From positions 1 through 55,125 of IMG/VR virus record IMGVR_UViG_3300034351_000046: a stretch of 55,125 nt of DNA; one strand, written 5' to 3'. Positions within the stretch are counted from its first letter, which is position 1; each line of letters begins with the position of its first letter. This stretch comes from a virus (taxonomy: Duplodnaviria; Caudoviricetes). Under the pieces are notes generated by a model. That model was not told where the DNA came from, made no database searches, and was given only the letters and a program-made list of their open reading frames with translations. A program made the position numbers and the translations under genes. Positions 2,351 to 52,913 of this stretch are shown piece after piece.

Positions 2351-2422
2351 TGCAGTGTCTTTCATTTGTGGTTTTGAGTTGAGTTGTGGGGGCCAGCCCA
2401 TCCGGGCCAGCCCCCTGGTTGA

Positions 2423-3628
2423 CTAGTCGTTTTCCTGCCGGTCCATGGCTTCCAGATCTGGGTCCTGAGTGTTGAAACGCTCGGGCGTCATGGCCCAGTA
2501 AGCTTCGCACTGCTCGGGCGTCACAAGCGCATGATAATGGTTCATGACGATGTCCGGGCTGTTGCCCATCTCAGCGGCAGTCCGGGCCAGATCGTGAGAC
2601 CGAGCCAGGAAGTAACTCCCGAAGGAATGGCGCATGATATCGGTAGGCCACGCATCGAACCCCAGGTGATCCCGGAGCGGCAGCATTTTCTTCTGCTTGC
2701 CCTTGGCGAATTCGGCGCCGATTTCGCAACCAAGCTTCCGGGCCAGCCGCACCCAGGCCAGGGCCGTGGGTTCCATGTGAATCATCCGCGCACGGCGCGT
2801 CTTGGTCTGCCACTTCTTGAGGGCAATCAAGCCCTTGTCGAGGTCGATGTCCTGCCAGCGTAACCGGTCGATTTCCTCCGGGCGGCAACCACAGAAAAGG
2901 CCGATGGTCACATAGCCCAGCTGGTGTAGTTGGTCCGGTGTCTCGAGGATGAACCGCAGGGCCTTGTCGACCTGCTCAGGGCTCATGATCGTGGCGCCTT
3001 CGTCCTTGACGATTTTACGCTTCGGGATTGAGTCACTGCTGCACGCCTGGACGGGCGCCCAGCCGCGCTTGTAACACAATCCGAAAAAGCTCCGGGCCGA
3101 GTCGCGATTATTGTTCCAGCTGGTGTCGTTGTCGTATCGATCCAGATACTCCAAAACATCCTCGGTTGTGATCTTGGCCACGGGCATATTCTCCCGGCCC
3201 TTGGCAAAGCGCCGGATCCAGCGGCCTGCATTGGCGCAGTGCATCTCAGAGTTACCCTTCCGGCGCAGGTGCGCTTCCCATTCGATCCCGGCCTTGGCCA
3301 AGGTCATGGACTCGGGCGCCAGCGCACCGTTGCCATTGGCCGAGGACTTTCCGGCCAGCCATTCGTCGATGACCTGGGTCATGGTGTAGTTGGGCGCGGC
3401 CTTGGTCAACCGGTCCAGGGCAACCATCATCTCCGCACGCTTGCTGCTCGAAAGGGCCAGCCACGCCTCACCGGCTCGGCGGCTCATCTCCTGCTTTTCG
3501 CGTGCGGCTTCCTCGGCCTCCTGGCGCGTCTTGTAAAAGCGCCGGATCCGAGTGCCGCCCGTGGGCGTGTAATCGAGGACAAAGCGCGTGCATCCGCGCT
3601 CGGTTTGTTTTCGGATATTCAGTTTCAT
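2423..3628 (-). CDS. int: Tyrosine recombinase / phage integrase
   Basis: Catalytic residues GCRPEE (R), KT (K), DIMRHS (variant HxxRH box), MGNS and NHY (Y); N-terminal arm-binding-like beta region (RIRRFYKTRQEA). Confidence 0.93.
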   Translation of the reverse strand: MKLNIRKQTERGCTRFVLDYTPTGGTRIRRFYKTRQEAEEAAREKQEMSRRAGEAWLALSSSKRAEMMVALDRLTKAAPNYTMTQVIDEWLAGKSSANGNGALAPESMTLAKAGIEWEAHLRRKGNSEMHCANAGRWIRRFAKGRENMPVAKITTEDVLEYLDRYDNDTSWNNNRDSARSFFGLCYKRGWAPVQACSSDSIPKRKIVKDEGATIMSPEQVDKALRFILETPDQLHQLGYVTIGLFCGCRPEEIDRLRWQDIDLDKGLIALKKWQTKTRRARMIHMEPTALAWVRLARKLGCEIGAEFAKGKQKKMLPLRDHLGFDAWPTDIMRHSFGSYFLARSHDLARTAAEMGNSPDIVMNHYHALVTPEQCEAYWAMTPERFNTQDPDLEAMDRQEND

Positions 3629-6561: not shown

Positions 6562-7099
6562 GTTCCCCGATCAACCCGATACCCAAGGCCATCCGGTAGA
6601 ACTTGGTCCGCTCCAGCGGACTGTCCACATGGAAGGTGGGATCGATCACTGCCATGTTCCATGGGCCGGCGGGATCATCGGCCTCCTCCAGCTTGGCTGA
6701 GATGACAATGGCCAATTCGTTTGTGGCCTCCACGCCATTTGGGCTCGAAGGAATGCTCGGAATCAGCAGGCTTGCCTCCTCGGAGAAATCGCTTTCCAGT
6801 CCACTGGTATTGAAAGCGGTGGCCGCAAAGTAGTAGACCAGGCCGCGCACAAAGTTGGTGATGATACAATTGGTCACGCTCACCGAAACGATTCCGTTGG
6901 TGAGTGTGTTGTGGAGGGTGACCACTCGAGTATAGGAACGGGAGTTGGTGCCGTCGTAGATCTTGTAGCCGGCAATGTCCAATTCTGGATTGGCATCCCA
7001 GGCCACCAGGACTCGAGGGGGCTTGTTGGTGGGGGCCAGCTGCCCCACGGCCGTAAAGGCCAGGAACAGCATCATGAGAAAAAGGATGGTTCGTTTCAT
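6551..7099 (-). CDS. Secreted fibronectin type III domain protein
   Basis: Signal peptide MKRTILFLMMLFLAFTAVGQ; Fn3 motifs WDAN...IAGYKIY...YYFAATAFN..GLESDFS; C-terminal LEEADD...W...FYR segment. Confidence 0.85.
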   Translation of the reverse strand: MKRTILFLMMLFLAFTAVGQLAPTNKPPRVLVAWDANPELDIAGYKIYDGTNSRSYTRVVTLHNTLTNGIVSVSVTNCIITNFVRGLVYYFAATAFNTSGLESDFSEEASLLIPSIPSSPNGVEATNELAIVISAKLEEADDPAGPWNMAVIDPTFHVDSPLERTKFYRMALGIGLIGEPIP

Positions 7100-10000
7100 T
7101 ATCGGGTTCGAGTTTCCCTCGGATACTTGTTGTCATCGGTGTAGGTGTTCACGCCTGCGCCGAAGATGTTGAGAATGGTAAGGATGGTGCCCTCGGAGAA
7201 TCCTCGCGCTTTGTAGATGTCCACGATATCCGCAAAGGGCAGCGGCACGAAAAGGTCCCGCATGATGTTGGGGATGTTGGTGGGGCGCCCCAGGAAATCC
7301 TCGCGCGAAATGATATCCAGGGCCACGCCGATGTCCGGGCGCAACTTGCTTCGGCCGAAACGGACCAGGACATCGACCAGGTTCCCCACCCCGTAAGCGT
7401 TGGCCGCATCGAAATCGATGGTCCTGCCTTTAAGCGTGGTGGTCGAGTTGGTCAGGATCCGGCTGGCCAGCACGATGGGCTGGATGAAGCCGCCCCACAG
7501 ATCGATCCGGGTATTGCCCCGCACGATCTTCATGAAGTCCGAGGAGGTGGGCGGGACCTCGTCCTTGTCATCGAACAGGGTCGAGATCAGGTAGAGGAAG
7601 GCCGCGCTGGAAAGGACACGCGCATATTCCTTGGCCACGATCCACCTGGCACGCTTGCTGTGTGCGAAGTCTCCCGCACCCCACAGGGGCTGGCCGGTCA
7701 AAAACTGAACCCGGCTCATCAGAAGCTTGGGCGCCCAGATGAATTCGGAGAATCCTCGAGCCGCAGCAGGGGGGACATAGCCACGGCCCGTGGCCACGTT
7801 GACCCAGTTACCCAGGATCCGAAGTTCGTTTTCGGTGGGAGGCCGATCGGAGAAGTTCTCCTGCAAGAGCACATCAGCCAATTCAGACCGGAGGACATTC
7901 AGGAAAGTGGCAAAGGCGCGATTCGAGCCGGCCACCGGAATGGCCAGGGCCCGGAAAGGCAGGCCGGCCACCTTGCCCAGCTTGGACTTGCCACCCCACA
8001 GACCCATGTTGGCCCACTCATCGAAGACTGACCTGGCGTTTTCCTCGGCTCGATTGAAGGTGGGGGATTCAATGTCGGTAAACTCGATCCCCATAATCTT
8101 GTAAGCGCCCGACTCGTAGTTGGGTTTGCGCCGAATGGCCGCATTGATCCGCTCAGCCCTGGCCCTCGAACTGGCTGCCTTGAACATGTCAATGAAGGCA
8201 CGCGCAATGCGTGGCGTGGTCTTGATAGGGGAAGTGGGTAGCCGCATCCCCAAGGAAAGAAGGGCGACAATTCCCTGCCGGCTCCCGGAGAAGTCATAGC
8301 TACTTCGGAGGTTGGTAACGGCCGTTCGCATGCGCCGAATGCCATACCAAACCTTCTTCATGCCGGTCAGGTTCTTGATCCGCTCAGCCTCGGCCTGGTT
8401 GTAGAAGTCGCGCTGGATTCGTTCCCGTTGAGCAGTGAGATCAATCACATCCCGATTCTGGGTCACTTCCTTGGGCGGCTCCTTCCGGCGCCGGGGCGAG
8501 AAATCCTGATCGGCAATGCGCTGCTTGTAATCGGCAATCTGCCGGCGCAGCTGAGAGACGCGCAGGTTGATGGCCTTGGTGACCGGATCCGGTTTGCCTG
8601 GGCCCAGTCGTTCGCGCATCTCCTTGCGCTGGTTCTTGAGGTCCTCGAGCCTGGCCGCCATCCTCTGGTTGCTGGGCTTGTCCTCGGGCCGGATCTTCTT
8701 GGACTTGGGAAAGACATCCTGGTTGGCCAGCTGGTTCTCCAGCTTGCGGATCTCACGGTCCAGCTGGAACCACCGCTTGTAGTCCTCCTTGGTGGTTAGA
8801 TCGGGCGGGGGATTGATCTCGCGCTGAGCCCACTCCTGCTCGGCCCGGAGTTGGGCAATCCTGGCACGGAGGGCCTCGAGCTTGGCGCTGGTGACCGGAT
8901 CCCGCTTGTTCGCACTGGTCCTGCGTCCCTCGACCAGGTCCTCCTCCATCTTGGTGATCATCCGCTCGGCCGCACGCTCGGCCCGTTCGATGCGCTGGAG
9001 ATCGGTCAGGCCTGGCGCCTCGAAGATCTGGGCATACTCTTCCCGGACACGATCGTATTCCTCCTTGAGGGCCTCGAGCTCCTCATCGGTCTGCTCGCGC
9101 CGGTCCTCGCGCTGGGCACGCATCCGCTCCCTGGCCTCCCAGTTGTTGGGATCCATCTCCCACCGGAGATCGGTAATCCGGTTCCGATACCAGGTCTTGC
9201 GGGAATCCAGGTAGGTCTTCTGCTGGTATTTGGCATCGGTGATGACCTCGCCATTGATCTTCTTGGCCCGATTCAAATCCCGCTCGAGGCGCAGCTGTTC
9301 ATCACTCTTCTCATCAGCCAGCCAGCCAGTCTTGGGGATCGGCCGCTTGGCTTCGGCATCGAGGATGTTGGAGAAGATTCGGATCTGGGCCTTGAGGTCC
9401 CGGATCGTTTTGCTGACATCGTCCTGCGCCGGCTCACGCACTCGGCCGCGCCCGGAGATCAGGTCTCGGGTTTCCTCGATCGTGATCCGGGGGACTACCT
9501 CGGAAATCATTCTGTGGACCGTCTGGGTGAGCTCGTCCCTGGTCATGAGGGGATCCAACTCCACCAGGCCGCGCACCAGCCGCTGGGTGGGATAGTAGAG
9601 CTCGCTCTGCCTGCTGCCCACCGGCTCGGTCGAGCTCGCCTCATGGGCCTGGATCTGCCGGAACTTGGCCATAGCCGACTCAACGATCTGTTCCGGCCCC
9701 ATCTCCTGCTGGGTCCGCGCCGGCCGCTCTACGACCCGTGAGGCGCGTGCGCTGGCCAGATCTGCGCGGCCTCGAGTCAAGCGCGTGGTCAGGTCCTGCT
9801 GGGAAGCCGGCCACACCTGGTCGAGGTAGGGCGAGATGTTGGGCCCGAGCTCCTCCACCATGGCTTCGTTCCAGTCGACCCGATCGGTGATGTTCTGGGC
9901 CAGCTTGGAACCGCCGATGATGGCCAGGTCCCGGAGGACCTCCTCGGGCAGGGGAGTGGGCCCCTCGGCCACGCTGAACCGGAGAGGTGTCTGGGGAAAG

Positions 10001-13000
10001 AGCCGCTTCCACTTGACGTTGATCCGTTCCTTGGCCGTCTTGGCGCTGTTCTGGTAGGACTTGACCCATTCCTCGGCAAACTTCATCACCTCGGGATTGA
10101 CCCTGGCCACCTCATCCTCGGCTTCCCCGATCGTGCGGTTGGCCTCGGCCTGCTGGAGGCGTGCAATCTGGGCATCGAGCTTGATGCTCAATTCCTGATA
10201 CTTCCTGGCTTCCTTCTCCACCCGTCGAAACAGTTCCTGCTTCTCATCCCGGCTCAGCCGTTTCCACCCCTGCGCTTGGCGCATGGTGTGATACATGACA
10301 TCGGGAGTGAAATCCCACTTGAGGGCCAGCTGCCGCGCCCGGAAGGCTCGGGCCGTAAGGGTGCCACTGCGCGTGGTGATCTCTCGAAGCTGGACCAAAG
10401 CCTGCCCCCAGAAATCGACCTGGGCGCGTGCGGCTGCCGCCTCGGCCACCAGGCCTTTGCTCTCGGCTGCCTCGGCGGCTTTGGAGGCCTTCCAGATCTC
10501 AGTGCGGAGCTCGAGCATCCAGTAATCCAAGGCCAGGACCTCCTCATCGGAAAGCATGCCAGGCCGTTTCTGCTCACGATCCACGATCGAATCAACCCAG
10601 GTGGGATCCCTGGCAATCCGGCGTTGCACCGTATCGAGCAATTCCTGGTCTGGCTTCCCGAGGAAATCCCTCATGGGAGGATGGCCCATTTCTCCGAGGG
10701 CCTTGTCCATGTCGGCATTTCGGATCGCCAGGAAATCGAAGTTGGGATCCGGCATTCGGCTAATCGAGTAGCGTGTAGTGTAGTCCTTATCGTGTTCCTC
10801 GAGGCCAGATGTTGGCGGGGGTGGCCCTTCCTCGCTTGCGTTGTGCGGCTGAGCCCAGGCACTCGCATCATTGAGCCGCCCCGTCTCGGCGGCGTACTGC
10901 ATGCTGCCCGTTCCCGTGGCAACCTCCATGGCCTCCCGGAAGAACTGAGACTTGGTGGCGGCCGCCATCGCATTGTCGAAGTCCCCGGCCTGCATCAACT
11001 CTTGGCTGAGAGCCTTGGCTTCAGCCTGCTGTTGGCGCAGCTGGTCCACCTGGTCAGGCGTGGTCATCGTGCGGCCCAGGCGAACCGCTTCTCCAGTGAT
11101 CCCGTCCGGGATGGTCCGGGCCCACTCCGCAAAAGCCGGCGCGTCCATGGCTCCCACCTGGTCGACAGTCAACCGGGGCTGCCCCGAGGTCACCGAGTAG
11201 CGGGAGTTGGCTTTTTGCACGGCGCGTTTGGCCGCATTGACCCCCTCGGTCAAGGCCTGGTCCAGGGACAGCTCCTTGGCGATTTCTCCCGCCATGAAGA
11301 TGCGATGGAAGCCGGCCGAATCCGCATACTTGGTGTCCATGTTGCGGAGGAAATTGGCATACTGGCGCCAGCTGTTGGCCACTCGGGAAACGACTCGCGC
11401 CTGGTCCTTGGTTGTGGCCACCCAAAGGAGTTCCATCGACCTTGGATTGGAGACGCTAATCGATTTGACTTTACCCGAATTGAATTTGGACACTGAACCA
11501 TCAAGCTTGGATGCGGCCATCTCATAGGACTTGGCAGCAACAGCCGCCTGCATCTTGGCCCTGTTGGCCGGCAACCCCACTCGAGACATCTCGACCAGGG
11601 GCCCGACCGGGGGCTCGACCTTGCCGCTCAGGATGTCATTCATCGAGAACAGCTGGCCATCTGGCGTCATGGCGATCGTGGATCCGAGGGCAAAGCATGG
11701 GCCACCACCCACCAGGCAAGTCGCGCATCCATTGAGGGAAGGCCCGGACTCCAGGGCACAATAACAAGCCGGGGTATTAAGCATCCCCTCGGGATCGTTG
11801 ATGAGCTTGGCCTCAGCCAATGCATTGACCACCTCATTGGTCCGATTGATATGCAGCACCATCGGCACGCCGGCCCTTCTGGCTTCCAGGAGCACCGGGA
11901 TGTCATCCACATCTCGCACCAGGTAGGAGTTGACGATGCCGCGCTCGGCCAGGTTGTTCTTCAGGAAATCGATTCCATATTGGTCGATGTATTCCCGGTA
12001 AAGCTGCCGATCGATCGAGCCCATCTTGAAAACGGCCACGCCGTTCTCGACATCGTTCCGGTCATACTGCCCGTTGCTGATGGAATCCAACCCGATCGTG
12101 CCGGGGGCGCGTGACACATGCGACCGACTGAAGATGTGAACAGGACGGTCGAGCTCCTTGATGGCCTGGTTGACCGCAACTGCCTGCCAGGGAAACGTGG
12201 TGTCGCCTGCGCCATTGATACGCAGAAAGGCCTGTTCTTCCTTGGGCATGTTCCTGATGAAACGGGCCACATGGGTGCCGACTTTTTCCGGCTCCATTGC
12301 CGTCACCAGGGAATGGCGCACTCGAGACTTCACGCCCACTGCCGGATTGCGAAGGCCCTTGGCATAGCAAACCGCGCACCCTTCACTTGGCATGCACGTT
12401 CCCAGTCCGAAATCCCAGGACACCCCGCCGGCTTTAGAATTGGAGGCCAGGAAATTGGCGCCGATGCTGGAGTTAGGGTCATCGATGTCCTGGAAGACCC
12501 GATTGTATTCTGCCTTGATGGCATACCAGAAGTTCTTATCCACCACGTAATCTGGCGGCACTCTGGCATCGAGGGTTTTGCGGATGGCCGCAATGCCTTC
12601 CGGGCTGTAGAACTTGCGGATGTATTCGATTAGGGATTGCCCCTCGCGTGGTTGCTGCCAGGGATTTTCCCTGGGGTCCACCAGGTCAGAGAGAGCCTCG
12701 CCTTCCCGGTAAAGAACATCCTGCACCGTCTTGAAGGCATCCTCCATGTTCATGCCTTCGGTTGGAGGCACGTATTCTCGGGCGCCGGCAAGCGAGGTCT
12801 TGCCCCTTACGTCCGCATAACTGTAACGGATCGTGTTGATGCTGGAGAGGGGGCTGCCCGGAGGGTAGGTTTCCTGCTCGCGCAATGCCTGCAACTCGGC
12901 TGGAGATTCAGCAATTCGTTGGGCACGCTGGATGCCCTTGCTGATCATGTCAGCAATCTCGTAGTCCGAGTAAGCTCGCTTGGACCAGCCGGGGATCCGC

Positions 13001-15288
13001 ATGGCACGCGCAACCTGGCGAATCTTATTGGCCACCCTTCTCCAGAATGGCGTAACCACGCCCCACCTGGCGACTCGCTCGGCTTCATAAGCCAGCCACT
13101 CCTCCCCGATTTGATAGATATCAGTGGTAGGGATCCGGTTCCTGGCTGCTACATCGGCTCGATCATTTGGGCTGAGGGTCCGATACACTCGGTTGACCAG
13201 GGCCGTAAATGCGGTGGGTCCGAGGGCCTGGCGAAGACCCAGATGGATGCCCACTTCATGGGTGACCTTTTCCCGGACCAATAGACGATCCCCAACCGGG
13301 AATTTCTTGGCGTTGAAAATGACTCGGCCGTTTGAATAGACCGCATCGGCATCATCGAATTGAATCCCGCGCTCGGCCAGGTCCTGCTTGACGATGTCTG
13401 GCAGCTGGGATCCTTCGTCGACCACCTCCACCAGGTTAAGTGCCCACGGGAAATCCCGTTCGAGGTTGGTCTTCAAGCCCAGGGATTCCTGGGTCACCTG
13501 GGGCTCGGTGATTAAGGGTGCGGTGGGCTCGGTCACGGGAGCCTGCGTGACGGATGGCCTGGTTGTTTGGGCGGGAGATACCCCGGCAGCCTCGGGGGCA
13601 GCCGTTGGCGCTACTGCCGCCTCAGCCTGGGGGGTGGGCTGAGCCGTGGGGGCAGCCTCAGCTGCCGGGGTGGGCACTGCCGCCTGAGTGGGAGCCGGCG
13701 CAGGCCGAAGGGGAATGGTCTGCGCCACTTCTCGGGCGGCTCTCTCCCGACCTTGAAGCTGTTGTGTGGGGGTGGTTGGCACCCCCGGCTCCTGGCCGGC
13801 CGTCAGGCGTGTAGTCATCACATCGGCCGGCTGGCCACGAAGGGCTGCCTGCCGGATGGCTGCATCTTCTGCCAGCTGCTGGGCGGTGCTGGTAAGCCCA
13901 ACTGACAAAGCCTGGTTCACAGCCTGGGCACCCTGGATATCGGCCACTCGGGGCATGATCTCCTGAGCGGTGCCGCGCACTGGGCTCGGCTGAACTGGGA
14001 CCATCACTCGGATGTCATCGCCTGTAACACTCTTAGTTTTGAGGGAAACAAGCTGGGCCTCGGGCCCGAACTCCACCAGCCTTCGGATTTCTTCCCGAAA
14101 CTGTTTGAGCTCGGCTCGGTTTTTGGTCACCCGATCGATGGCTGCCGATCCCTCGAAAGTTCCACTGACACCGCCACCAATCAGTACCCCGCCCACGCCG
14201 GCCATCAGGATTTCCTTAACGGCCTCCTCGACGGTCTTATCGGGGTTATAGGTCATCCACTCATAGACCGACTGCAAAAACTGATCAACGACTTCCTCGG
14301 CGCCTTCATAGCCAGCTTCCTTGGCCAACCGCATGATGACGCCCTTGGCGACCAGGTCTTTCTTTGCGGCCGTCAGGACCTCTTTACCTGTTCGACCTGC
14401 GCCGGCCGTCACTACTGCCGTGATGATACCGGAAATCAAACCGTCCCCGGTGGCATGCCTTCGGGCTTCCTCTTCGGATTCACCCCGTTCCCGTCGCATC
14501 TCATAGGATTGAGCGTAAGTGTCGCCAGCCTGTTGGAGGCCTGACATGGCGATCATTGCCGGGAATCCAACCGGCGCCACGGCCACGGCAGGAATGGCAG
14601 TTCCAAAAGTCTGAACGAGGCCTTTGATCTCCTGGGGGCCAGGTGAATTCTGGGAGATCACATCCAAGGCATCCAGATATTCACCTGGCACATTGGCAGT
14701 CTCCTCGAAATGTTTGATGATCGGATCGAATTTCTTGGCTAGGGATTCGTAGAGCTCCCTGTTCTTCTTCGCCAACTCGGGCCCCAATGGAGGCGCCCAC
14801 GCACCAGGCATTTGTTGACCCGGAACTTGCTGCTCAGCTATCCCCCTGGCCAGGCTTTGAGGTAATGCCCCAAAAAGCCATCCCCCTATGCGCTGCATGT
14901 TCCTGGAAATGTCAGGCCAAAGACCCACTAAACCGAGCTTTGCCTGCGTGGCCACGTTTCCAAGACTTGGATATTCAACTCCAGGTTTGTAGATAGGGCC
15001 GGGAATCATGTAGCCCATGCCGAATTCGATTGGCACCTTGGGCTTTTCAGGAGGGGGCTCCTCGCCAGGCAAAAGCAGAGGGGCCTGGTAGAGATCAGAT
15101 GGCTTTTTGGCCCAGGCCTTTCCCGGCTCGGTCAAGGGCTTGGCCGGCTCATCGAAAGTGAGAGGAGCAGTGTAGATGTCCTCCTCTTCGCCACCAGGCT
15201 CATCGAAAGTAAGTGGAGCCGTGTAGATGTCCTCCTGCTCGGGAGAATCAAAAGTTAACGGCGCTGTGTAGATGTCCTCATTCGGCAT
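7099..15288 (-). CDS. Giant polyvalent internal virion / DNA-ejection protein (2729 aa)
   Basis: Near the end of the virion operon; hydrophobic Gly/Ala helices; zincin-like HEVGIH...EEWLA; Cys-rich GP88-like region; long coiled coils. Confidence 0.8.
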   Translation of the reverse strand: MPNEDIYTAPLTFDSPEQEDIYTAPLTFDEPGGEEEDIYTAPLTFDEPAKPLTEPGKAWAKKPSDLYQAPLLLPGEEPPPEKPKVPIEFGMGYMIPGPIYKPGVEYPSLGNVATQAKLGLVGLWPDISRNMQRIGGWLFGALPQSLARGIAEQQVPGQQMPGAWAPPLGPELAKKNRELYESLAKKFDPIIKHFEETANVPGEYLDALDVISQNSPGPQEIKGLVQTFGTAIPAVAVAPVGFPAMIAMSGLQQAGDTYAQSYEMRRERGESEEEARRHATGDGLISGIITAVVTAGAGRTGKEVLTAAKKDLVAKGVIMRLAKEAGYEGAEEVVDQFLQSVYEWMTYNPDKTVEEAVKEILMAGVGGVLIGGGVSGTFEGSAAIDRVTKNRAELKQFREEIRRLVEFGPEAQLVSLKTKSVTGDDIRVMVPVQPSPVRGTAQEIMPRVADIQGAQAVNQALSVGLTSTAQQLAEDAAIRQAALRGQPADVMTTRLTAGQEPGVPTTPTQQLQGRERAAREVAQTIPLRPAPAPTQAAVPTPAAEAAPTAQPTPQAEAAVAPTAAPEAAGVSPAQTTRPSVTQAPVTEPTAPLITEPQVTQESLGLKTNLERDFPWALNLVEVVDEGSQLPDIVKQDLAERGIQFDDADAVYSNGRVIFNAKKFPVGDRLLVREKVTHEVGIHLGLRQALGPTAFTALVNRVYRTLSPNDRADVAARNRIPTTDIYQIGEEWLAYEAERVARWGVVTPFWRRVANKIRQVARAMRIPGWSKRAYSDYEIADMISKGIQRAQRIAESPAELQALREQETYPPGSPLSSINTIRYSYADVRGKTSLAGAREYVPPTEGMNMEDAFKTVQDVLYREGEALSDLVDPRENPWQQPREGQSLIEYIRKFYSPEGIAAIRKTLDARVPPDYVVDKNFWYAIKAEYNRVFQDIDDPNSSIGANFLASNSKAGGVSWDFGLGTCMPSEGCAVCYAKGLRNPAVGVKSRVRHSLVTAMEPEKVGTHVARFIRNMPKEEQAFLRINGAGDTTFPWQAVAVNQAIKELDRPVHIFSRSHVSRAPGTIGLDSISNGQYDRNDVENGVAVFKMGSIDRQLYREYIDQYGIDFLKNNLAERGIVNSYLVRDVDDIPVLLEARRAGVPMVLHINRTNEVVNALAEAKLINDPEGMLNTPACYCALESGPSLNGCATCLVGGGPCFALGSTIAMTPDGQLFSMNDILSGKVEPPVGPLVEMSRVGLPANRAKMQAAVAAKSYEMAASKLDGSVSKFNSGKVKSISVSNPRSMELLWVATTKDQARVVSRVANSWRQYANFLRNMDTKYADSAGFHRIFMAGEIAKELSLDQALTEGVNAAKRAVQKANSRYSVTSGQPRLTVDQVGAMDAPAFAEWARTIPDGITGEAVRLGRTMTTPDQVDQLRQQQAEAKALSQELMQAGDFDNAMAAATKSQFFREAMEVATGTGSMQYAAETGRLNDASAWAQPHNASEEGPPPPTSGLEEHDKDYTTRYSISRMPDPNFDFLAIRNADMDKALGEMGHPPMRDFLGKPDQELLDTVQRRIARDPTWVDSIVDREQKRPGMLSDEEVLALDYWMLELRTEIWKASKAAEAAESKGLVAEAAAARAQVDFWGQALVQLREITTRSGTLTARAFRARQLALKWDFTPDVMYHTMRQAQGWKRLSRDEKQELFRRVEKEARKYQELSIKLDAQIARLQQAEANRTIGEAEDEVARVNPEVMKFAEEWVKSYQNSAKTAKERINVKWKRLFPQTPLRFSVAEGPTPLPEEVLRDLAIIGGSKLAQNITDRVDWNEAMVEELGPNISPYLDQVWPASQQDLTTRLTRGRADLASARASRVVERPARTQQEMGPEQIVESAMAKFRQIQAHEASSTEPVGSRQSELYYPTQRLVRGLVELDPLMTRDELTQTVHRMISEVVPRITIEETRDLISGRGRVREPAQDDVSKTIRDLKAQIRIFSNILDAEAKRPIPKTGWLADEKSDEQLRLERDLNRAKKINGEVITDAKYQQKTYLDSRKTWYRNRITDLRWEMDPNNWEARERMRAQREDRREQTDEELEALKEEYDRVREEYAQIFEAPGLTDLQRIERAERAAERMITKMEEDLVEGRRTSANKRDPVTSAKLEALRARIAQLRAEQEWAQREINPPPDLTTKEDYKRWFQLDREIRKLENQLANQDVFPKSKKIRPEDKPSNQRMAARLEDLKNQRKEMRERLGPGKPDPVTKAINLRVSQLRRQIADYKQRIADQDFSPRRRKEPPKEVTQNRDVIDLTAQRERIQRDFYNQAEAERIKNLTGMKKVWYGIRRMRTAVTNLRSSYDFSGSRQGIVALLSLGMRLPTSPIKTTPRIARAFIDMFKAASSRARAERINAAIRRKPNYESGAYKIMGIEFTDIESPTFNRAEENARSVFDEWANMGLWGGKSKLGKVAGLPFRALAIPVAGSNRAFATFLNVLRSELADVLLQENFSDRPPTENELRILGNWVNVATGRGYVPPAAARGFSEFIWAPKLLMSRVQFLTGQPLWGAGDFAHSKRARWIVAKEYARVLSSAAFLYLISTLFDDKDEVPPTSSDFMKIVRGNTRIDLWGGFIQPIVLASRILTNSTTTLKGRTIDFDAANAYGVGNLVDVLVRFGRSKLRPDIGVALDIISREDFLGRPTNIPNIMRDLFVPLPFADIVDIYKARGFSEGTILTILNIFGAGVNTYTDDNKYPRETRTR
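15151..15279 (-). repeat. Three EDIYTAPLTFD peptide repeats at the giant protein N-terminus
   Basis: 33-nt units at 15247-15279, 15202-15234 and 15151-15183; identical at protein level, synonymously diverged. Confidence 0.95.
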
Positions 15289-44651: not shown

Positions 44652-46172
44652 ATGAAACCCAGGCCCTACCAAACAGAGGCCGTCCTTAAGATTCGACACG
44701 GTTTTAAGGAGTTCAAAAAGCAACTGGCAGTCCTCCCGACTGGCAGTGGCAAAACCATTCTCTTCTCCTGGCTTGCTGAGGAAATCCAGCCGCTCAAGAC
44801 ATTGATTCTTTGTCATCGGCAGGAGCTCCTCACGCAGGCCGTGGAGAAGTTGAGGATGGCCACCGGGATCCGCGCCGAGTTGGAAAAAGCGGAGTGGACT
44901 GCCTCCGCTGAAGCCCCGGTAGTGGTGGCCAGTGTTCAGAGCATGATCCGAAGGCTGGACCGGTGGCCATCTGATCACTTTCACCTGGTGGTAGCCGATG
45001 AGGCCCACCATGCCGTCTCAGAATCCTGGCAGAAGGTTCTGAACCATTTTGACAGCTACGTTTTGGGATGCACTGCCACGCCTGATCGAGCGGACCAACG
45101 CACGCTCGGTGAGTACTTCGAGAACGTAGCTGTCGACATTTCATTGGTACGCCTAATTCGAGAGCAATACCTCTCCAACATCGTCATCAAAAGCGTGCCC
45201 CTTAAAATCGACCTGACCAAGGTCCACCTCCAGGGTGGGGACTTCGATGAGGTGGAGCTTGGCCACCTCCTGGAGCCCTACCTGGTCACGATTGCCCAGG
45301 CCATCCGAGACCACGCAAGTTTCCGCAAGGTCCTCGCCTTCCTTCCACTGATCGATACCAGCCGAAAGTTTGTCGAGGCCTGCCGCCAGGTGGGACTCAC
45401 AGCCAAGCACGTAGACGGTAAATCCCCTGACCGCGCAGAGATCCTCCAGCAGTTCGACAACAACCAATTTGACGTTCTGTCAAACGCGATGTTGCTTGTT
45501 GAGGGCTACGATTCCCCCAGCATCGATTGCATCGTTGTCTTGCGCCCTACCAAGAGCCGGCCGCTTTTCGCGCAGATGGTGGGACGGGGCACTCGGGTCC
45601 ATCCGGCCAAGGAAAACCTGCTTCTGCTGGACTTTCTTTGGCTCCATGAACGGCATCGGATTGTCCACCCTGCCGATCTGATGGCCCATGACGCCGAGGA
45701 GGCTGATATCGTTACCGAGCTCTCCCAGAAGCTCTCTGCCCAGGGCGCCTCGGAGGAACAGCTGGACCTGCTCACCCTGGCCGCTAGCGCCACTGAAGAG
45801 CGCGAACGTAAGTTGCGCGAACGCCTGGCCGAGCTCGCCAGCCGCAAGGCCAAATTCATCAGCCCTGAGCAATTCTGCTTGGAGCATGGCGAGACCGAAA
45901 CGGCCTTCTATGAACCCACCATGAAGTGGGAAGGCAAGCCGATCACACGCAAGCAAATGAAGTATTTGGAACGAACCAAAATCGATCCAGACCTCATTAA
46001 GGGGCGCGGCCACGCCTCCAAGCTCCTGGACGTTATGTTCAAACACAAAGACCTGGAGCTCGCCTCCCAAAAGCAACGGTGGTCCATGCAGCAACATGGC
46101 CACCCAGATCCATGGATGGCAACCAAAGCTGAAGCCAGAAGATTCTTCGCCCAACTCAACCGAAAGAAATGA
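44652..46172 (+). CDS. SF2 DEAH-box helicase
   Basis: RPYQ, LPTGSGKT, DEAHH, TAT, NAMLLVEGYD and QMVGRG motifs. Confidence 0.95.
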   Translation: MKPRPYQTEAVLKIRHGFKEFKKQLAVLPTGSGKTILFSWLAEEIQPLKTLILCHRQELLTQAVEKLRMATGIRAELEKAEWTASAEAPVVVASVQSMIRRLDRWPSDHFHLVVADEAHHAVSESWQKVLNHFDSYVLGCTATPDRADQRTLGEYFENVAVDISLVRLIREQYLSNIVIKSVPLKIDLTKVHLQGGDFDEVELGHLLEPYLVTIAQAIRDHASFRKVLAFLPLIDTSRKFVEACRQVGLTAKHVDGKSPDRAEILQQFDNNQFDVLSNAMLLVEGYDSPSIDCIVVLRPTKSRPLFAQMVGRGTRVHPAKENLLLLDFLWLHERHRIVHPADLMAHDAEEADIVTELSQKLSAQGASEEQLDLLTLAASATEERERKLRERLAELASRKAKFISPEQFCLEHGETETAFYEPTMKWEGKPITRKQMKYLERTKIDPDLIKGRGHASKLLDVMFKHKDLELASQKQRWSMQQHGHPDPWMATKAEARRFFAQLNRKK

Positions 46173-47647: not shown

Positions 47648-47883
47648 GAATTTTCCAGGAACGCAAGGTGGCCTATGCGGTGGAGGGCCCCTACGAAGAT
47701 CAAATGCGACTTACTACCGGAGATCGAAAAACCATGGATGAGGCACTCGAAGCCGCCAGGGAATTCGAGAAAGAAATGCCGATTCAGAAATTACGGCTTG
47801 TAAAGACAGTGACGATTGTCTATACAGAAATCCTTCCGTATCCACAACGGCACAGCAGGTGCCCTAAATGCGCGACAAAATGA
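47644..47883 (+). CDS. Hypothetical protein
   Basis: 79 aa; ATGA overlaps at both ends. Confidence 0.7.
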   Translation: MRIFQERKVAYAVEGPYEDQMRLTTGDRKTMDEALEAAREFEKEMPIQKLRLVKTVTIVYTEILPYPQRHSRCPKCATK

Positions 47884-48353
47884 GCGATTGGAAATATTTG
47901 AACAGATGCCGGATCCCGCCAGGGAAATCCAAGATGTATGGATCCCGCCCCTCGGACGGGTTCAATGGCGCCTTTCACATCACCATCAATGGGCTGGAGC
48001 TCCTGGCCCTGGCCTCCGATGGGATGGGGTGGCAGCATGTCTCCGTTTCAATTGCTCGCCAGCCGACACACACACCCAGCTGGCACATAATGTGCGCGTG
48101 CAAAAACCTTTTCTGGGAGGACACCGACACGGTCATGCAGCTGCACCCTCCCAAGGCTCTTTACGTAAACCATCACCCAGGATGCCTGCATCTGTGGAAA
48201 CCCACGATGGATGGCGTCATCATCCCGCTGCCGCATCCCGCCATGCTGGGATGGGAAATGGAAGATGGGAAATCGGCCCTGGAGGTCCCAGGCCTGCCCC
48301 AAGAGGTTCAGGAGTGGATCGAGAAGCATTACGGGAAAAGGGCCCCCGAATGA
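47880..48353 (+). CDS. Conserved phage protein (WxHVSVS...HPxCLHLW family)
   Basis: GWQHVSVS, PSW..MC..K.LFW, QLHP and YVNHHPGCLHLW motifs. Confidence 0.85.
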   Translation: MSDWKYLNRCRIPPGKSKMYGSRPSDGFNGAFHITINGLELLALASDGMGWQHVSVSIARQPTHTPSWHIMCACKNLFWEDTDTVMQLHPPKALYVNHHPGCLHLWKPTMDGVIIPLPHPAMLGWEMEDGKSALEVPGLPQEVQEWIEKHYGKRAPE

Positions 48354-48503
48354 GAGACGGGTGACCGGAAGGACACTACTACTTCCAATCACCCGTCATT
48401 CTCAAAACCACAGTTCGCGACTGTGGTTCTAACGATTTTTTGACTTTCAGCGCAAGCTGAAAATCGAGAAACCAAAAAACCAAAAAAGCAGAAAGACCAC
48501 AGT

Positions 48504-49250
48504 ATGAAGAGATCAGAGGCTAAAGAGCCTATTGGAAATCCCGTCCTCCCAGGCGGGAAGGAAAAGAAGGAACGCATCATCATCAAGCCGCCCAACTTCG
48601 GGCTGGCTCAATTCACGATCGAGGGGCTCACGCAATTGTGCGTCCATCGATTCTCACAGAAGGTCCTCGAAAGCCTGCGCGGAGAACCCGATGCAGAAAC
48701 CGGGGAGAAAGCACCATCCAAAGCCAAAAAGAAGCCCAAGAAAAAGTACTCCGACGAAGTGCTTTATCATGACGCTCGCTACATCAGCCCGGAGGGCTGG
48801 GACGGAATCCAGGCCAGTGCCTTCCGTAACTGCATGATCTCGGCATGTCGCGTGGGCGGCTTTGAGATGACCAAAGCAAAGCTGAGCCTGTTCTGTGTTC
48901 AGGACGGGTTCGATGCCACTCAACCTCAATTCGGCATCGTCCGAATCTACGGTGAACCGCGCATGGCGATTGACATGGCCAGGGTCTCCCGAGGGGATCC
49001 CTATCCTGTTGTGCGTCCGGTTTACATGCCCTGGCACGCGAAAGTGAAAATCCGATGGGACGCAGATCAATTCCATCTGGATGACGTTGCCAACCTCCTC
49101 TACCGAGCCGGCGTGCAGGTTGGTGTCGGTGAGGGACGCTGGGACAGCAAAAAGTCTGCTGGCCTTGGTTGGGGGCAATTCGCAATCACGGGCATTGAAA
49201 GACTCACTCTCGAAATCCCACAACTACCACCGATTCCACCCATTAAATGA
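48504..49250 (+). CDS. RAMP/Cas7-like RNA-binding protein; putative effector of the adjacent array
   Basis: RRM-like layout: first strand FTIEGLTQLCVH, IQASAFRNCM (cf. the RAMP IPxSxxKG helix), and a C-terminal Gly-rich loop GVQVGVGEGR...GLGWGQF. Confidence 0.7.
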   Translation: MKRSEAKEPIGNPVLPGGKEKKERIIIKPPNFGLAQFTIEGLTQLCVHRFSQKVLESLRGEPDAETGEKAPSKAKKKPKKKYSDEVLYHDARYISPEGWDGIQASAFRNCMISACRVGGFEMTKAKLSLFCVQDGFDATQPQFGIVRIYGEPRMAIDMARVSRGDPYPVVRPVYMPWHAKVKIRWDADQFHLDDVANLLYRAGVQVGVGEGRWDSKKSAGLGWGQFAITGIERLTLEIPQLPPIPPIK

Positions 49251-49804
49251 GCACCAAAACCAAAGTCGAATTCGGCTATGCGCCGATGCCCAACTCGAAG
49301 CTGAACAAAACTCAGGTTCAGGTTGTGGCCTCCGAATTCAAACGCCTGGAAGAAAAACATCGGGTTCTCAAGCCGGCCACGATTGTCGAGGCCGCTCGCC
49401 CCCAAGGGTCCAGGCTACACCCATTCTTCACCTGGGATGATCGGGCAGCCGCCGAGCAATACCGGCTGATCGAAGCGCAGATGCTTTCCCGATCTGTCCG
49501 CATATTCCAGGTGGGAATCCCACTGGCTGAACAGCCGGTTGTTCGCGCTTGGGTCCATGTGACCGCACATAGCGAGGAGACCGAGTTTGAAGGCCCAGGC
49601 TACATCAGTGTGAATCGTGTTTTGGACGACACTCGCTACCGGGAGCAGATGCTCCAGGAAGCCAGAGATGACATCCGCATTTTTCAGCGCAAGTACGAGG
49701 ACCTCCTCCTTGTGACGGGGGCCATGGAAAGCGTTGAGAAAGTCAAAAGCAAGCTAGCTCCAAAGCCGCGCAGGCGCGGTGGGGCGCGTCACAAAGCGAC
49801 CTAG
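49247..49804 (+). CDS. Conserved partner protein of the RAMP-like gene
   Basis: ATGA-coupled; LKPATIVEAAR..GSRLHPFFTWDDRAAAEQYRL..A motif; function unknown. Confidence 0.75.
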   Translation: MSTKTKVEFGYAPMPNSKLNKTQVQVVASEFKRLEEKHRVLKPATIVEAARPQGSRLHPFFTWDDRAAAEQYRLIEAQMLSRSVRIFQVGIPLAEQPVVRAWVHVTAHSEETEFEGPGYISVNRVLDDTRYREQMLQEARDDIRIFQRKYEDLLLVTGAMESVEKVKSKLAPKPRRRGGARHKAT

Positions 49805-49828
49805 CAAGCAAAGCCCTGTAGTGGCGGC

Positions 49829-50743
49829 GCAGGCGAGTCATGGCCGAGAGTGATTGGTGGAGAGTGTCGATGCCAGGTTAGACATGGCAATGCTGGCACG
49901 ATGCCGCTCCTCCGAGCAAGTCGAGTTCAAACCGAGCGCGATGCAGTATGTCAAGACATGCCATTGCAGGCTCGACCAGCCCCGTCTTGATGCGGCTGGG
50001 AAGGGCAAAGCACAACAAGACATGTCCTGGTTTGGTGCGACCGAGCCAGGCAAGGTCAGGCGTGTCGCGACAAGGCAAAGCTGGCGCGACAATGCGAGTC
50101 CAGCCTGAGATGGGTGCGACGATGCCTGACATGGCAAAGCAATGCAGGCAAGGCGCGATCTGGCGAGCCAGCGCACGTAATGGCGGGGCGCGATGCGTCC
50201 CTGCGCGACATGGCAAAGCTGGCGAGTCGAGCCTCGTTGAGGCGAAGCTAAGCTGAGTTGGGCAATGCAGGCAAAGCGCGAAATGGTCTGGCCTTTTACG
50301 ACGAGGCGGGTCTAAGCGATCCCAGGCTGGCCAAGCGCGAATTGTCAGAACCGAGCGAGCTATGGATTGCCAAAGCAATGCAGGCGGTGAGTGGGGAGCA
50401 TTGACTGGCGAGACTAGTCAAGCCACGACAGTGCAGGCAAGTCGAGTTCGTGCCTAGCCCAGCGTTGCGTGACATGGCTGAGAAGAGCAACGCAGGCAAG
50501 TCGAGGCGGGACACGTACTGACTCGGCACGGCATGACACAGCATGGCAGGCATGGGATGGCGAGACTAGTTGTAGTTTAGCCCGGCCTGGTCCGTCTGAG
50601 CAGGCATGGAATTGCTGGTCAAGTTGTAGCAAGGCGGAACCTGGATTGTCTGGGTGAAGCCAAGCAGGCATGCCCACGCAAAGCAGGGCCAAGTCTAGTG
50701 AAGCCTGACAGTGCAGGTTTGGCTGGGTTTGGCTTGTCGGTAA
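49829..50743 (+). ncRNA. Pentamer-periodic guide-like array (NN + triplet units, GC(A/T)GGC delimiters)
   Basis: 15 delimiters; 12 of 14 intervals equal 5n+9 nt; no credible ORF; the NN strings decode to phage protein motifs. Confidence 0.85.
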
Positions 50744-50747
50744 ACCC

Positions 50748-50786
50748 GAGTGGCCGGTAGGTTGATTCCTGCCGGCCGCTCACTTT
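50748..50786 (+). terminator. 14-bp stem-loop closing the array
   Basis: GAGTGGCCGGTAGG-TTGATT-CCTGCCGGCCGCTC (two G-U pairs), followed by ACTTT. Confidence 0.65.
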
Positions 50787-50801
50787 CAATGGAGTGAACT
50801 T

Positions 50802-52913
50802 ATGGAATTGATCGAACAAGCCGCACGTTATCTTCAGTCGATCCCGCCGGCCATCTCTGGCCAGGGTGGACATTCTCAAACCCTCAACGCCGCCCGAGCC
50901 CTGGTCTGGGGCTTCAACCTTCCCGAGGCTCAAGCCATGGAGCTCCTGAGTCAGTGGAACCAAGGGTGCCAGCCACCCTGGAGCCAGAGGGAGCTCGAGC
51001 ACAAAATCAAGGAGGCCAACAGCAAGGAATTTGGTAAACCGCGCGGCTATCTCCTCTCCAAGAACCAACGCTATCTTTCGCGCAACGCCGCTCGACCAGG
51101 CGTCGAGTCCAAACCCGAGGTGGCTGCCAAACAATACGATCTGAGCACCGCCCAGGAAATCGAACTGCCCAAGGGCAAGCGCGACGGGTTTTTCCAGTTG
51201 CTGGAGGCCTGCTTTAAACCTGGTGAAGGCGTGCGCGTGATGGGCGGCATGGATGAGGAGGGGCATGTGCGGTGTGATCCCCACGGGGGCGTGGTCCTTT
51301 CCAGGGAGGAGTGGATCAGTAAGCTCGAACAGAAGGGCAGCATCAACGCGCTCTACTATCGCCTGGGAGGTCCTCCGCTGGGGGTTTACCTGGGCATCAA
51401 CCCGATGAAAATCGGGGGCGGCAACAAGGATGCCGATGTCACGGCCTATCGCCACTGCCTGCTGGAGTTTGACAAGATCTCCATTCGCGAGCAGTGGGCC
51501 CTGATCGTCCAGTCCAACATCCCCTGCGCGGCCGTCATCTACTCGGGCAACAAATCGATCCACGCCTGGGTGAAGGTCGACGCGCCAGACCGCAAGACCT
51601 ACGACGAACGGGTCAGCGCCATTTACGATCACTTCCGGGAATATCAACCAGATGTCAAAAACAAGAACCCCTCCCGGTTCTCCCGGTGCCCGGATGCCAA
51701 GCGCGATGATACGGTGCAGTATCTCCTGGGCCTGAACCTGGGCGCCGAGTCCTACACCGAGTGGAGCAAGCAACTCCTGGTGGAGGGAATCGGCATCACC
51801 TATTCGGCCAAGGAGGTGCGCGAATACGATCCCACCGAGGACGGCATGACCGTGGCCGGGGATCAATGGCTTCGCAAGGGCGGGTCCTGCATCCTGGTGG
51901 GGCCCTCGGGCGTGGGCAAGTCCAGTCTGGCCTGCCAGATTGCCATGTGCTGGGCCCTGGGCCGGCCCTGCTTTGGAGTGACGCCGGTCAAGCCGCTCAA
52001 GATCCTCTTCCTTCAAGCCGAGAATGACCTGGCCGATTTGCACTCGATGAACATCGGGATTTACCAGGGCCTGGGAATACTCGATCAACCGGAGGCCTTG
52101 GAGATGATCGACCGCAACCTGGTCTACAACCACAACGTGGCCGACACGGGCCACTCCTTCATCGTCGCGTTGCAGAAGCTGGTGGACTACCACGAACCGG
52201 ACCTGGTGATTGTCGATCCCCTGCTCTCATTCATTGGCGATGACGCCAGCCGGCAGGAGATCGTGGGCCGGTTCTTCCGCAACTGGCTCAACCCGATCCT
52301 GCACAATTCCAACGTGGCCTTCATGGGCGTGCATCACACCGGCAAGCCGCCTCAGCAGCAGGAAGGCAAGGGCGGCAAAAAGCCCCCGCGTCGATCCCTG
52401 GCCGAGTGGTCCTACCAGATGATGGGCAGCAGTGAGTTGACCAACTGGGCGCGTGCGGTGGTCCTGCTCAATCAGCTTCCCGAGGGCGACTTCGAGTTGA
52501 TCTTCTCCAAGCGCGGCAAGCGTGCCCAGGCCACGCATCCCAATGGGAGCCCCACGCAAATCGTCCGATTGCGGCATAGTCCTCTGGCAATTTTCTGGGC
52601 CCAGGAGGATCCCCCGGAGGAACCGGTCACCGCTTCGGAATCCGAGCCCCAGGCGGCACCCAACATGACAGCTGGACAAATGGTCCAGACAGTGGCTAGC
52701 TCCAATCTTTATGAGTTCACCAATTCGATCCCCAAAGAGGGCATAAGCAATGCCAGACTGCGCGAGATGATAGTGGACTACGCCGCCAACACTCTGGGGA
52801 TCGACCTGGGCGAACCGAGATCCGGGCGTGTCACGCGCACGCTGGAAGCCCTAGTCCGCAACCACAAACTGAGCCGCAAAGGAAAACTCTACATCAAGGG
52901 GCACGATGCATAA
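50802..52913 (+). CDS. Primase-helicase (AEP-like plus AAA_25/RepA-like helicase)
   Basis: PPAISGQGG N-domain; LLEFD, SGNKSIHAW and NPSRFSR primase motifs; GPSGVGKS, IVDP and VHH helicase motifs. Confidence 0.9.
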   Translation: MELIEQAARYLQSIPPAISGQGGHSQTLNAARALVWGFNLPEAQAMELLSQWNQGCQPPWSQRELEHKIKEANSKEFGKPRGYLLSKNQRYLSRNAARPGVESKPEVAAKQYDLSTAQEIELPKGKRDGFFQLLEACFKPGEGVRVMGGMDEEGHVRCDPHGGVVLSREEWISKLEQKGSINALYYRLGGPPLGVYLGINPMKIGGGNKDADVTAYRHCLLEFDKISIREQWALIVQSNIPCAAVIYSGNKSIHAWVKVDAPDRKTYDERVSAIYDHFREYQPDVKNKNPSRFSRCPDAKRDDTVQYLLGLNLGAESYTEWSKQLLVEGIGITYSAKEVREYDPTEDGMTVAGDQWLRKGGSCILVGPSGVGKSSLACQIAMCWALGRPCFGVTPVKPLKILFLQAENDLADLHSMNIGIYQGLGILDQPEALEMIDRNLVYNHNVADTGHSFIVALQKLVDYHEPDLVIVDPLLSFIGDDASRQEIVGRFFRNWLNPILHNSNVAFMGVHHTGKPPQQQEGKGGKKPPRRSLAEWSYQMMGSSELTNWARAVVLLNQLPEGDFELIFSKRGKRAQATHPNGSPTQIVRLRHSPLAIFWAQEDPPEEPVTASESEPQAAPNMTAGQMVQTVASSNLYEFTNSIPKEGISNARLREMIVDYAANTLGIDLGEPRSGRVTRTLEALVRNHKLSRKGKLYIKGHDA

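Follow-up and report, generated by a model that had tools for sequence, protein, structure and literature searches.

The window analysed here is the whole of a 55,125-nucleotide (nt) stretch of viral DNA (IMG/VR record IMGVR_UViG_3300034351_000046, Duplodnaviria; Caudoviricetes), in which two adjoining genes for proteins of 248 and 185 amino acids (aa) are followed by a 997-nt gap (49805–50801) and then by a 703-aa primase/AAA_25 helicase gene (50802–52913), all on the plus strand. Within the gap, at 49805–50745 on the same strand, there is an array of degenerate pentamers punctuated by a short recurrent word. We think that it is very probably a staggered array of about 14–15 vrRNAs, the guides of the phage-borne system VIPR (Viral Interference Programmable Repeat).

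The description of VIPR followed here is that given in the available parts of three bioRxiv preprints (10.64898/2026.04.26.720920, 10.64898/2026.04.26.720927, 10.64898/2026.10.15.759431). A VIPR system combines an ancestral RAMP protein encoded by the phage (Vipr) with the vrRNAs and, in most cases, a single accessory gene (vap) (10.64898/2026.04.26.720920). Each vrRNA consists of 9–16 YNNGG repeats, with one Vipr protomer per repeat hiding GGY, and the NN bases read double-stranded DNA, one base being skipped after every two, with silencing of transcription. In nature the guides are directed at competing phages and satellites, and most often it is the wobble base of a codon that is skipped. 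The repeat variants NNNGG, YNNNG and NNNNG and frequent internal degeneracy are also reported, and the array layouts vary (10.64898/2026.04.26.720920). The legend of Fig. S18 of the same preprint mentions 'staggered' vrRNA arrays with a 1-nt overlap, and the layouts named in its available part as confirmed by small-RNA sequencing are only the ribozyme-interspersed and the single-vrRNA ones.

Rhythm, punctuation and units of the array

A first-pass annotation of the DNA, made from the letters alone, had listed 15 delimiters (14 copies of GC(A/T)GGC and a final GCAGGT at 50713) together with their intervals, and a motif search found all the positions exact and the intervals correct. Twelve of the 14 spacings equal 4 modulo 5, i.e., 5n−1 (P = 1.2e-6 for at least 12 of 14 in any one residue class), and both of the intervals described as 1 nt short carry one additional internal −1 slip, at 49855 and 50395 according to Viterbi phase tracking, which finds 17 register slips in the gap, every one of −1. 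The spacing had been written as 6 + 5n + 3. As a spacing it stands, and we recast it as units of exactly 5n nt sharing one base: with each unit starting at the C of C(A/T)GGC and sharing that base with the preceding unit, 12 of 14 are exact multiples of 5, and the 1-nt overlap of adjacent units results in the 5n−1 spacing. Thirteen of the 14 units hold 10–15 pentamers and one holds 23 (Table 1). The delimiter is strand-specific, since the gap of about 1 kb has 14 of the 61 forward copies in the window, against 47 in the other 54 kb, and only 1 of the 98 copies of the reverse complement GCC(A/T)GC.

The rhythm also withstands the autocorrelation check that had been proposed. Identity at lag 5 is 0.402, compared with 0.264 ± 0.014 in 2000 permutations (z = 10), and the top 17 sliding 300-nt windows by lag-5 score in the whole 55 kb start within 49751–50551, that is, on the array. 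Identity falls over the lags in the order 5 > 10 > 15. No significant period-5 signal appears in a global Fourier analysis (z = −0.9), since each unit boundary shifts the register. Lag identity is therefore the right test here, and a plain power spectrum would wrongly 'refute' the periodicity.

In a logo of 152 phased pentamers, positions 1 and 2 lie near background, as the first-pass annotation had stated; position 3 is G (0.66) or A (0.24), position 4 is G (0.50), and position 5 is C (0.66) or T (0.18). The claim that the content of the blocks is free holds for the variable dinucleotides, but not for the block ends, where semi-conservation extends over about 15 nt ahead of the hexamer and 8 nt behind it. 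No tandem repeat was called in the array by TRF, which gave no near-identical long direct repeats either, and no Rfam family matches the array at the gathering threshold. The region is non-coding, with 8–13 stop codons per plus-strand frame in the gap, and no single stop reassignment opens a frame across the array.

Contig pieces from the runs of four studies (49000–51600) show 0 differences where they overlap the array. Thus, the array is not hypervariable, and the same phage genotype is widespread. The gain and loss of whole blocks, for which a comparison had been suggested, was not seen among the contigs covering the array, which have no variants. No DNA match to the array was found in cultured phages. 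The phage has no close cultured relative, and its primase shares about 30% identity with those of Firmicute phages.

The Vipr homologue, its partner gene and related loci

The 248-aa protein encoded by the first of the two upstream genes matches phrog_4652 (E = 1.1e-5) and clusters by phmmer with 16 open reading frames (ORFs) adjacent to arrays. A family profile (A5), made from this protein and 17 array-adjacent ORFs, matches PDB entry 36pp_D, 'SUSP1 Vipr protein', with E = 6.4e-38 over residues 2–189 of 202, and this is the only solved structure matched. In the alignment, a beta-1 His, an R-P thumb motif and a G-x-G-E-G-R ... G-x-G-x-F G-loop correspond at the sequence level to H17, R138 and D177–R179 of SUSP1. 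The 248-aa protein is thus best read, from its sequence, as a Vipr (RAMP-family) homologue. Its G-loop has G-E-G-R in place of the G-D-W-R of SUSP1, in which W178 stacks on the second G, according to the available part of the preprint (10.64898/2026.04.26.720927). The exchange of E-G for D-W was considered as the cause of the weak GGY of the array and rejected, as Cyanophage Cy-LDV1 and L274, a viral contig locus from IMG/VR, share the variant and have clean NNGGC arrays. The second gene, which belongs to the phrog_15946 family, has no relative of its product in Pfam or PDB searches; like vipr, it is an intact ORF.

The association between these genes and arrays was studied by hunting for arrays from DNA alone. 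A pattern of six GGC at 5-nt spacing matches no fewer than 139 stretches of viral contigs; period-5 tracts of 330–1700 nt, with strong strand asymmetry, are found in at least 60 of these. Eighty pattern loci were collected with their flanks, of which 47 are non-redundant arrays; these numbers, and the counts that follow for array loci, are among the matches listed. The co-oriented ORF immediately upstream belongs to phrog_4652 in 16 of 37 cases and to phrog_15946 in 7 of 37, which are the same two families found upstream of the array in the window; the second is present in 14 of the 47 non-redundant array loci. Searched with a hidden Markov model, the Vipr family appears in 60 of the 80 pattern loci and within 2 kb of 41 of the 47 non-redundant arrays. 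Of 218 loci around primase homologues, which serve as the control, only one has the family: L218, from Gordonia phage Trine, which itself bears an array. Given 60 of 80 array loci against 1 of 218 primase loci, the array belongs with the Vipr family and not with the primase.

Period-5 GGC arrays are common in viral contigs of 56–81% GC (L219–L357). At the 47 arrays, Vipr is placed 5' and co-oriented in 27, 3' and co-oriented in 12, and in opposite orientation in 2, and the distances between Vipr and array fall into two classes, from about −75 to +10 and from 376 to 621 with an intervening gene. RecT/Bet, exonuclease and RusA-like genes are neighbours of the array in some loci (L232). In the L259 and L288 rows of alignment A5, the called Vipr ORFs reach into arrays on their upstream side, and their N-termini read, for example, MARPGGARQGG... 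Arrays of this kind will probably enter automatic annotations as hypothetical proteins, and gene callers will mistake T-poor repeats for ORFs.

The Vipr of Cy-LDV1 is 43.7% identical to that of the window, and its gene g33 is of the phrog_15946 family (E = 7e-37). This phage has two arrays, with units that begin with CAGGC at 5n−1 spacing, and L274, the closest IMG/VR relative, has GCAGGC at its array boundaries, so that the punctuation of the blocks recurs in other phages. The gene order in Cy-LDV1 (BK059895, a phage of Cylindrospermopsis; L370:4086–5064) is vipr (g34), array, partner gene (g33), array. This stretch adjoins excisionase, bet and exonuclease genes, and all of it is annotated as hypothetical proteins or left as unannotated intergenic DNA.

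Among the 218 primase loci, a long period-5 array occurs only in L001 and L003, a near-identical pair with a primase 61% identical to that of the window. The L001 array, of 1.5 kb, also ends just before the primase, and its register slips are of +1. It shares with the array of the window the strand-specific words ATGGC, AAGGC, AAAGC and GGCAA. The two arrays give no alignment, and the upstream genes of the window have no homologue in L001. Three loci with primases 59–61% identical to that of the window (L002, L081, L082) have no array within the fetched flanks, and a primase tree obtained by a quick method did not settle between one gain and two. The repeats of L001 (1359–3460; also L003, L161 and L163) take six-base steps at ...GC R|ANGGC, giving units of 5n+1. 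They are preceded by the gene of a 199-aa protein with a G-loop-like end (G-L-G-Q-W-R), which the ESM Atlas puts among viral 'RAMP superfamily' clusters (score 0.97, TM 0.87–0.90) and which has no match to the Vipr profile of the window (hhalign probability 8.5%). A second type of VIPR is probably present at L001. The array there is crossed by a 443-aa ORF (2080–3411), a length reached by 0 of 2000 shuffles; R, A, P and S abound in the product, which has no Pfam match, and the frame has 2 stops compared with 8 and 15 in the other frames. This ORF is most likely an artefact of T-poor repeats, which leaves its stop avoidance in one frame unexplained.

In Gordonia phage Trine (MH271318, gene 41; L218:509–1430), two short (NNGGC)10–12 tracts come after the gene of a Vipr homologue, bracketed by three copies of a tRNA-like T-arm/acceptor minihelix of about 45 nt: one precedes the first tract, and each tract has another behind it. 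One of the copies is called tRNA-??? by ARAGORN. The minihelix may serve as a tail resembling a tRNA or as a signal for processing.

Predicted targets of the guides

Targets were searched for with the published rule, in which the NN bases of each pentamer are kept and one wildcard stands for the remainder, i.e., a 1-nt skip. The search covered 1.9 Mb of fetched loci and the records of five whole relatives, besides scans of IMG/VR, and the controls were 200 order-shuffled guides and skip rules of 0, 2 and 3.

Unit 7 (50268–50327) matches sites in two of the loci (L207 and L191) at 22 of 24 bases, and if its constant first dinucleotide is excluded, dinucleotides 2–12 match at 22 of 22. The site lies in frame in an SF2 helicase gene, at the motif CNAMLLTEGYDQ, and the two loci differ from each other there solely at skipped wobble bases. 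In total, 27 loci reach at least 20 of 24, all of them at the helicase motif, in frame and with the skip on the wobble base. None of the 200 shuffled guides goes above 18 of 22, and unit 7 works under the 1-nt skip rule only, with skips of 0, 2 and 3 giving 17–18. All of the 90 exact matches in IMG/VR encode NAMLLTEGYD. In addition, the 20-base core of the unit is present with 0 mismatches in four of the five whole relatives' records, and no match of the same core read backwards was found in those five. The predicted target of unit 7 is motif V of an SF2 helicase, common to at least 90 viral contigs. The homologous site in the phage's own helicase gene (SNAMLLVEGYDS) scores 71%, under the published 80% cut-off. 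Only 5 of the 12 pentamers of unit 7 have GGY, yet its variable bases match perfectly. We think that this unit is maintained, because the variable bases have been kept where the scaffold looks weak.

Unit 13 (50601–50665) reaches 20 of 24, in frame, in two pairs of loci (L002/L164 and L082/L162), and none of the 200 shuffled guides reaches 20. The sites are in homologues of the window gene at 47816–48364. The best self matches of both guides are of 17 of 24 (71%). The matches thus predict, for at least two units, targets at conserved in-frame sites within replication-module genes of related phages that compete with this one. Among the other units, the best match of unit 11 (50493), at a second helicase site, has 16 of 20, a score that 111 of 200 shuffled guides also attain. 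The 8-dinucleotide core of unit 12 (50547) hits more than 120 stretches in IMG/VR, 5 of 120 reaching 19 of 20 where about 6 are expected (binomial, by hand), and that of unit 10 (50434) hits 3 stretches; both scans thus stay at chance level. The remaining units had no supported match in the five whole relatives or in the target loci.

A probable staggered VIPR array and the competing explanations

The first-pass annotation had taken the blocks for guide-sized RNAs and not for a decaying satellite. The adjoining Vipr gene with its usual partner, the 10–15 pentamers per unit, the gapped in-frame predicted targets of at least two blocks and the recurrence of the CAGGC punctuation in Cy-LDV1 and L274 support that view. 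The VIPR reading draws on what is observed here, namely the periodicity, the division into units, the homology to Vipr, the association of the protein with arrays and the gapped matches. By analogy with other VIPR systems, transcription, processing at the boundaries, formation of a ribonucleoprotein and silencing would complete it. The plus strand of the array would probably be transcribed together with vipr and the partner gene. One Vipr protomer would bind each pentamer and sequester its G-G-Y part, leaving the two variable bases exposed, and the filament would read double-stranded DNA, skipping one base after every two, with silencing of the bound gene's transcription. Each unit would start at C(A/T)GGC and share the C with the end of the preceding one, which would give the −1 register shift at each boundary. 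At least two units would be aimed at replication-module genes of rivals, the phage's own copies remaining below the match threshold.

The closest comparison is with the type II VIPR of SUSP1, an Escherichia phage, which is the characterised example. Both are phage-borne, with a small RAMP-family Vipr gene and one partner gene, and have tandem pentamers with two variable bases, 10–15 repeats per unit in the window. They also coincide in gapped matches with a 1-nt skip on wobble positions, in predicted targets in competing elements and in lower self matches. There are also differences: SUSP1 has four vrRNAs, whereas the window has 14–15 units in one uninterrupted array; an invariable pseudoknot tail of about 40 nt stands between the SUSP1 units, and the array of the window has no tail; the constant part is degenerate in the window (26% of pentamers carry the strict GGY and 76% R-N-Y); and the target in SUSP1 is a satellite, whereas the predicted targets here are replication genes of related phages. 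The layout is closer to the staggered arrays of the Fig. S18 legend, as far as that legend describes them, in which the end of one unit is the start of the next with a 1-nt overlap. The 5n−1 spacing is found in the window, Cy-LDV1 and L274, and the C(A/T)GGC boundary word comes from the present analysis, not from the preprint. With the crRNA/Cas7 complexes of Class 1 CRISPR the system would share a RAMP protein that oligomerises on the guide and periodically removes bases from pairing, and many guides per array. The period there is 6 with 5 informative bases, whereas here it is 5 with 2. Moreover, unlike a CRISPR array, the window has no long identical repeats, only the hexamer being conserved, no other cas or acquisition genes nearby, the neighbours being helicase, primase and proteins of unknown function, and guides that are not contiguous copies of their targets. 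A CRISPR array proper was rejected on these grounds, TRF having given no near-identical direct repeats of about 23–50 nt.

Several results weigh against the VIPR reading. The PHROG score of the 248-aa protein is modest (E = 1e-5), and as a single query the protein has no PDB match. Of the 178 pentamers, only 47 have the strict GGY, a figure that rises to 101 for GNY and 136 for RNY, and Cy-LDV1 and L274 combine the GEGR variant with clean repeats. The unit of 23 pentamers exceeds the published vrRNA range, no conserved 3' tail of the type II kind was found after the units, which abut with a 1-nt overlap, and 12 of the 14 units have no supported target in the roughly 2.3 Mb of relatives' DNA. 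A promoter scan found no promoter-like site, and none of the sequencing runs listed as containing the array sequence is an RNA run.

Some of these points would also suit a decaying or largely defunct VIPR array, in which the rhythm is a fading imprint and most units no longer load Vipr. We consider this unlikely. The low share of GGY next to the clean arrays of relatives with the same G-loop variant, the internal slips in two units and the many units with no supported target are what decay would leave. However, unit 7 has kept its variable bases through a mostly degenerate scaffold, vipr and the partner gene are intact, and the array pieces from four studies are identical; moreover, the preprint itself, in its available part, reports frequent internal degeneracy and alternative consensus sequences (10.64898/2026.04.26.720920).

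It is very unlikely that the array is a replication origin or an iteron pad to which the adjacent primase-helicase binds through its C-terminal domain. The array ends about 60 nt before that gene, L001 and L003 also have a period-5 array in the same slot, and SaPI Rep proteins bind short penta- or hexanucleotide iterons adjoining the rep (primase/helicase) gene, as described in the available part of PMC9371898. The loci with primases of 59–61% identity and no array speak against it, as does the fact that arrays follow the Vipr family. In addition, a SaPI origin has an AT-rich centre surrounded by 6–12 iterons, and the binding is to double-stranded DNA (PMC9371898, same part), whereas the array has about 190 degenerate units, has a GC content of 0.57–0.60 with no AT-rich centre, and goes with Vipr and not with the helicase. 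In-frame gapped matches to other phages' genes would not be expected from an origin. A literature search on pentanucleotide periodicity in phages and at origins gave nothing direct.

Still more improbable is a non-coding RNA that acts as a structure or a protein sponge and not as a guide, such as a series of TRAP-like sites or a G-rich tract that forms R-loops. The plus strand folds better than its shuffles (z = −6.2, reached by 0 of 20), compared with z = −1.2 for the minus strand, the GC skew of the array (+0.13) is the highest in the window, and the 5-nt spacing resembles that of TRAP binding sites. The folding energy is, in our opinion, inflated with respect to shuffles, because G-N-C pentamers pair promiscuously in register, which counts against a structured RNA. 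Furthermore, there is no Rfam match, L001 shows no GC skew, and the gapped in-frame matches would be left unexplained. Before the link to Vipr, a Chi-like decoy and an immunoglobulin-switch-like R-loop tract had been considered, along with the origin and TRAP-like readings; they were then dropped or kept as minor rivals. As for a protein-coding region, its chance is practically nil: the 443-aa ORF of L001 is set against the stop codons in each frame of the window, which no single reassignment removes, the lag decay of a nucleotide and not a codon rhythm, the absence of a Pfam match for the L001 product, and T-poor GGC repeats that open in many frames, as in L232.

To return to the VIPR array, we would propose, tentatively and with less than even confidence, that the Vipr subfamily with G-E-G-R (window, Cy-LDV1 and L274) has tail-less arrays with 1-nt overlaps in which C(A/T)GGC is the sole signal for processing or nucleation, that this phage tolerates a strongly relaxed R-N-Y triplet, and that the guides act against conserved protein motifs of essential replication genes, the phage's own gene being recoded and substituted to escape. 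If this were true, a single guide would cover at least 90 phage lineages despite synonymous change, which would amount to a broad-spectrum exclusion of related phages at the level of a motif. The predicted helicase target can be tested: its motif occurs in no fewer than 90 viral contigs, and the copy in the phage itself carries mismatches.

The first descriptions of VIPR date only from 2026 and drew on cultured phages and NCBI records; the present array comes from an uncultured phage. It would be a 14–15-guide array in the staggered layout, which is outside those named in the available part of the preprint as confirmed by small-RNA sequencing. Judging from its sequence, the traits of its own would be the long, tail-less staggered layout, the relaxed constant triplet and the predicted targets in replication-gene motifs of relatives. 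For annotation, the gain is that phrog_4652 can be read as a Vipr family and phrog_15946 as a frequent partner gene, and that VIPR arrays can be found from the rhythm of DNA alone, at least 139 stretches having come from one pattern scan.

Table 1. Positions of the putative VIPR locus, its predicted vrRNA units and associated sites in the window
Feature	Position	Strand	Basis
vipr, predicted Vipr (RAMP-family) guide-binding protein, 248 aa	48504..49250	+	phrog_4652 and profile match
vipr partner gene (vap-like), 185 aa, phrog_15946	49247..49804	+	phrog_15946 match, E = 5.5e-18
Leader, five in-register pentamers between the vap-like stop codon and unit 1	49805..49829	+	read in sequence
Putative vrRNA unit 1, 64 nt, one internal −1 slip at 49855	49830..49893	+	
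Putative vrRNA unit 2, 15 pentamers	49893..49967	+	
Putative vrRNA unit 3, 23 pentamers; may be two units with no boundary motif between them	49967..50081	+	
Putative vrRNA unit 4, 13 pentamers	50081..50145	+	
Putative vrRNA unit 5, 15 pentamers	50145..50219	+	
Putative vrRNA unit 6, 10 pentamers	50219..50268	+	
Putative vrRNA unit 7, 12 pentamers, predicted guide against rival-phage helicase motif NAMLLTEGYD	50268..50327	+	
Putative vrRNA unit 8, 11 pentamers	50327..50381	+	
Putative vrRNA unit 9, 54 nt, one internal −1 slip at 50395	50381..50434	+	
Putative vrRNA unit 10, 12 pentamers	50434..50493	+	
Putative vrRNA unit 11, 11 pentamers	50493..50547	+	
Putative vrRNA unit 12, 11 pentamers	50547..50601	+	
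Putative vrRNA unit 13, 13 pentamers, predicted guide against homologues of phage gene 47816–48364	50601..50665	+	
Putative vrRNA unit 14, 10 pentamers	50665..50714	+	
Short terminal unit beginning CAGGT, 5 pentamers, register lost afterwards	50714..50738	+	
GGCCGG/CCGGCC hairpin between array and primase ribosome-binding site	50752..50777	+	read in sequence
Phage's own helicase site homologous to the unit 7 target, predicted non-target	45480..45515	+	17/24
Phage's own site homologous to the unit 13 target, predicted non-target	48087..48122	+	17/24

A terminator scan gave nothing useful, and it did not call the GGCCGG/CCGGCC hairpin downstream of the array. Nor did it call a hairpin followed by a T-run at 48405–48440, between a 182-aa gene and vipr. 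The latter could end the upstream transcript, and vipr, the partner gene and the array could therefore form a unit of their own. Elsewhere in the window, the minus strand has an ORF of 2729 aa at 7099–15288.

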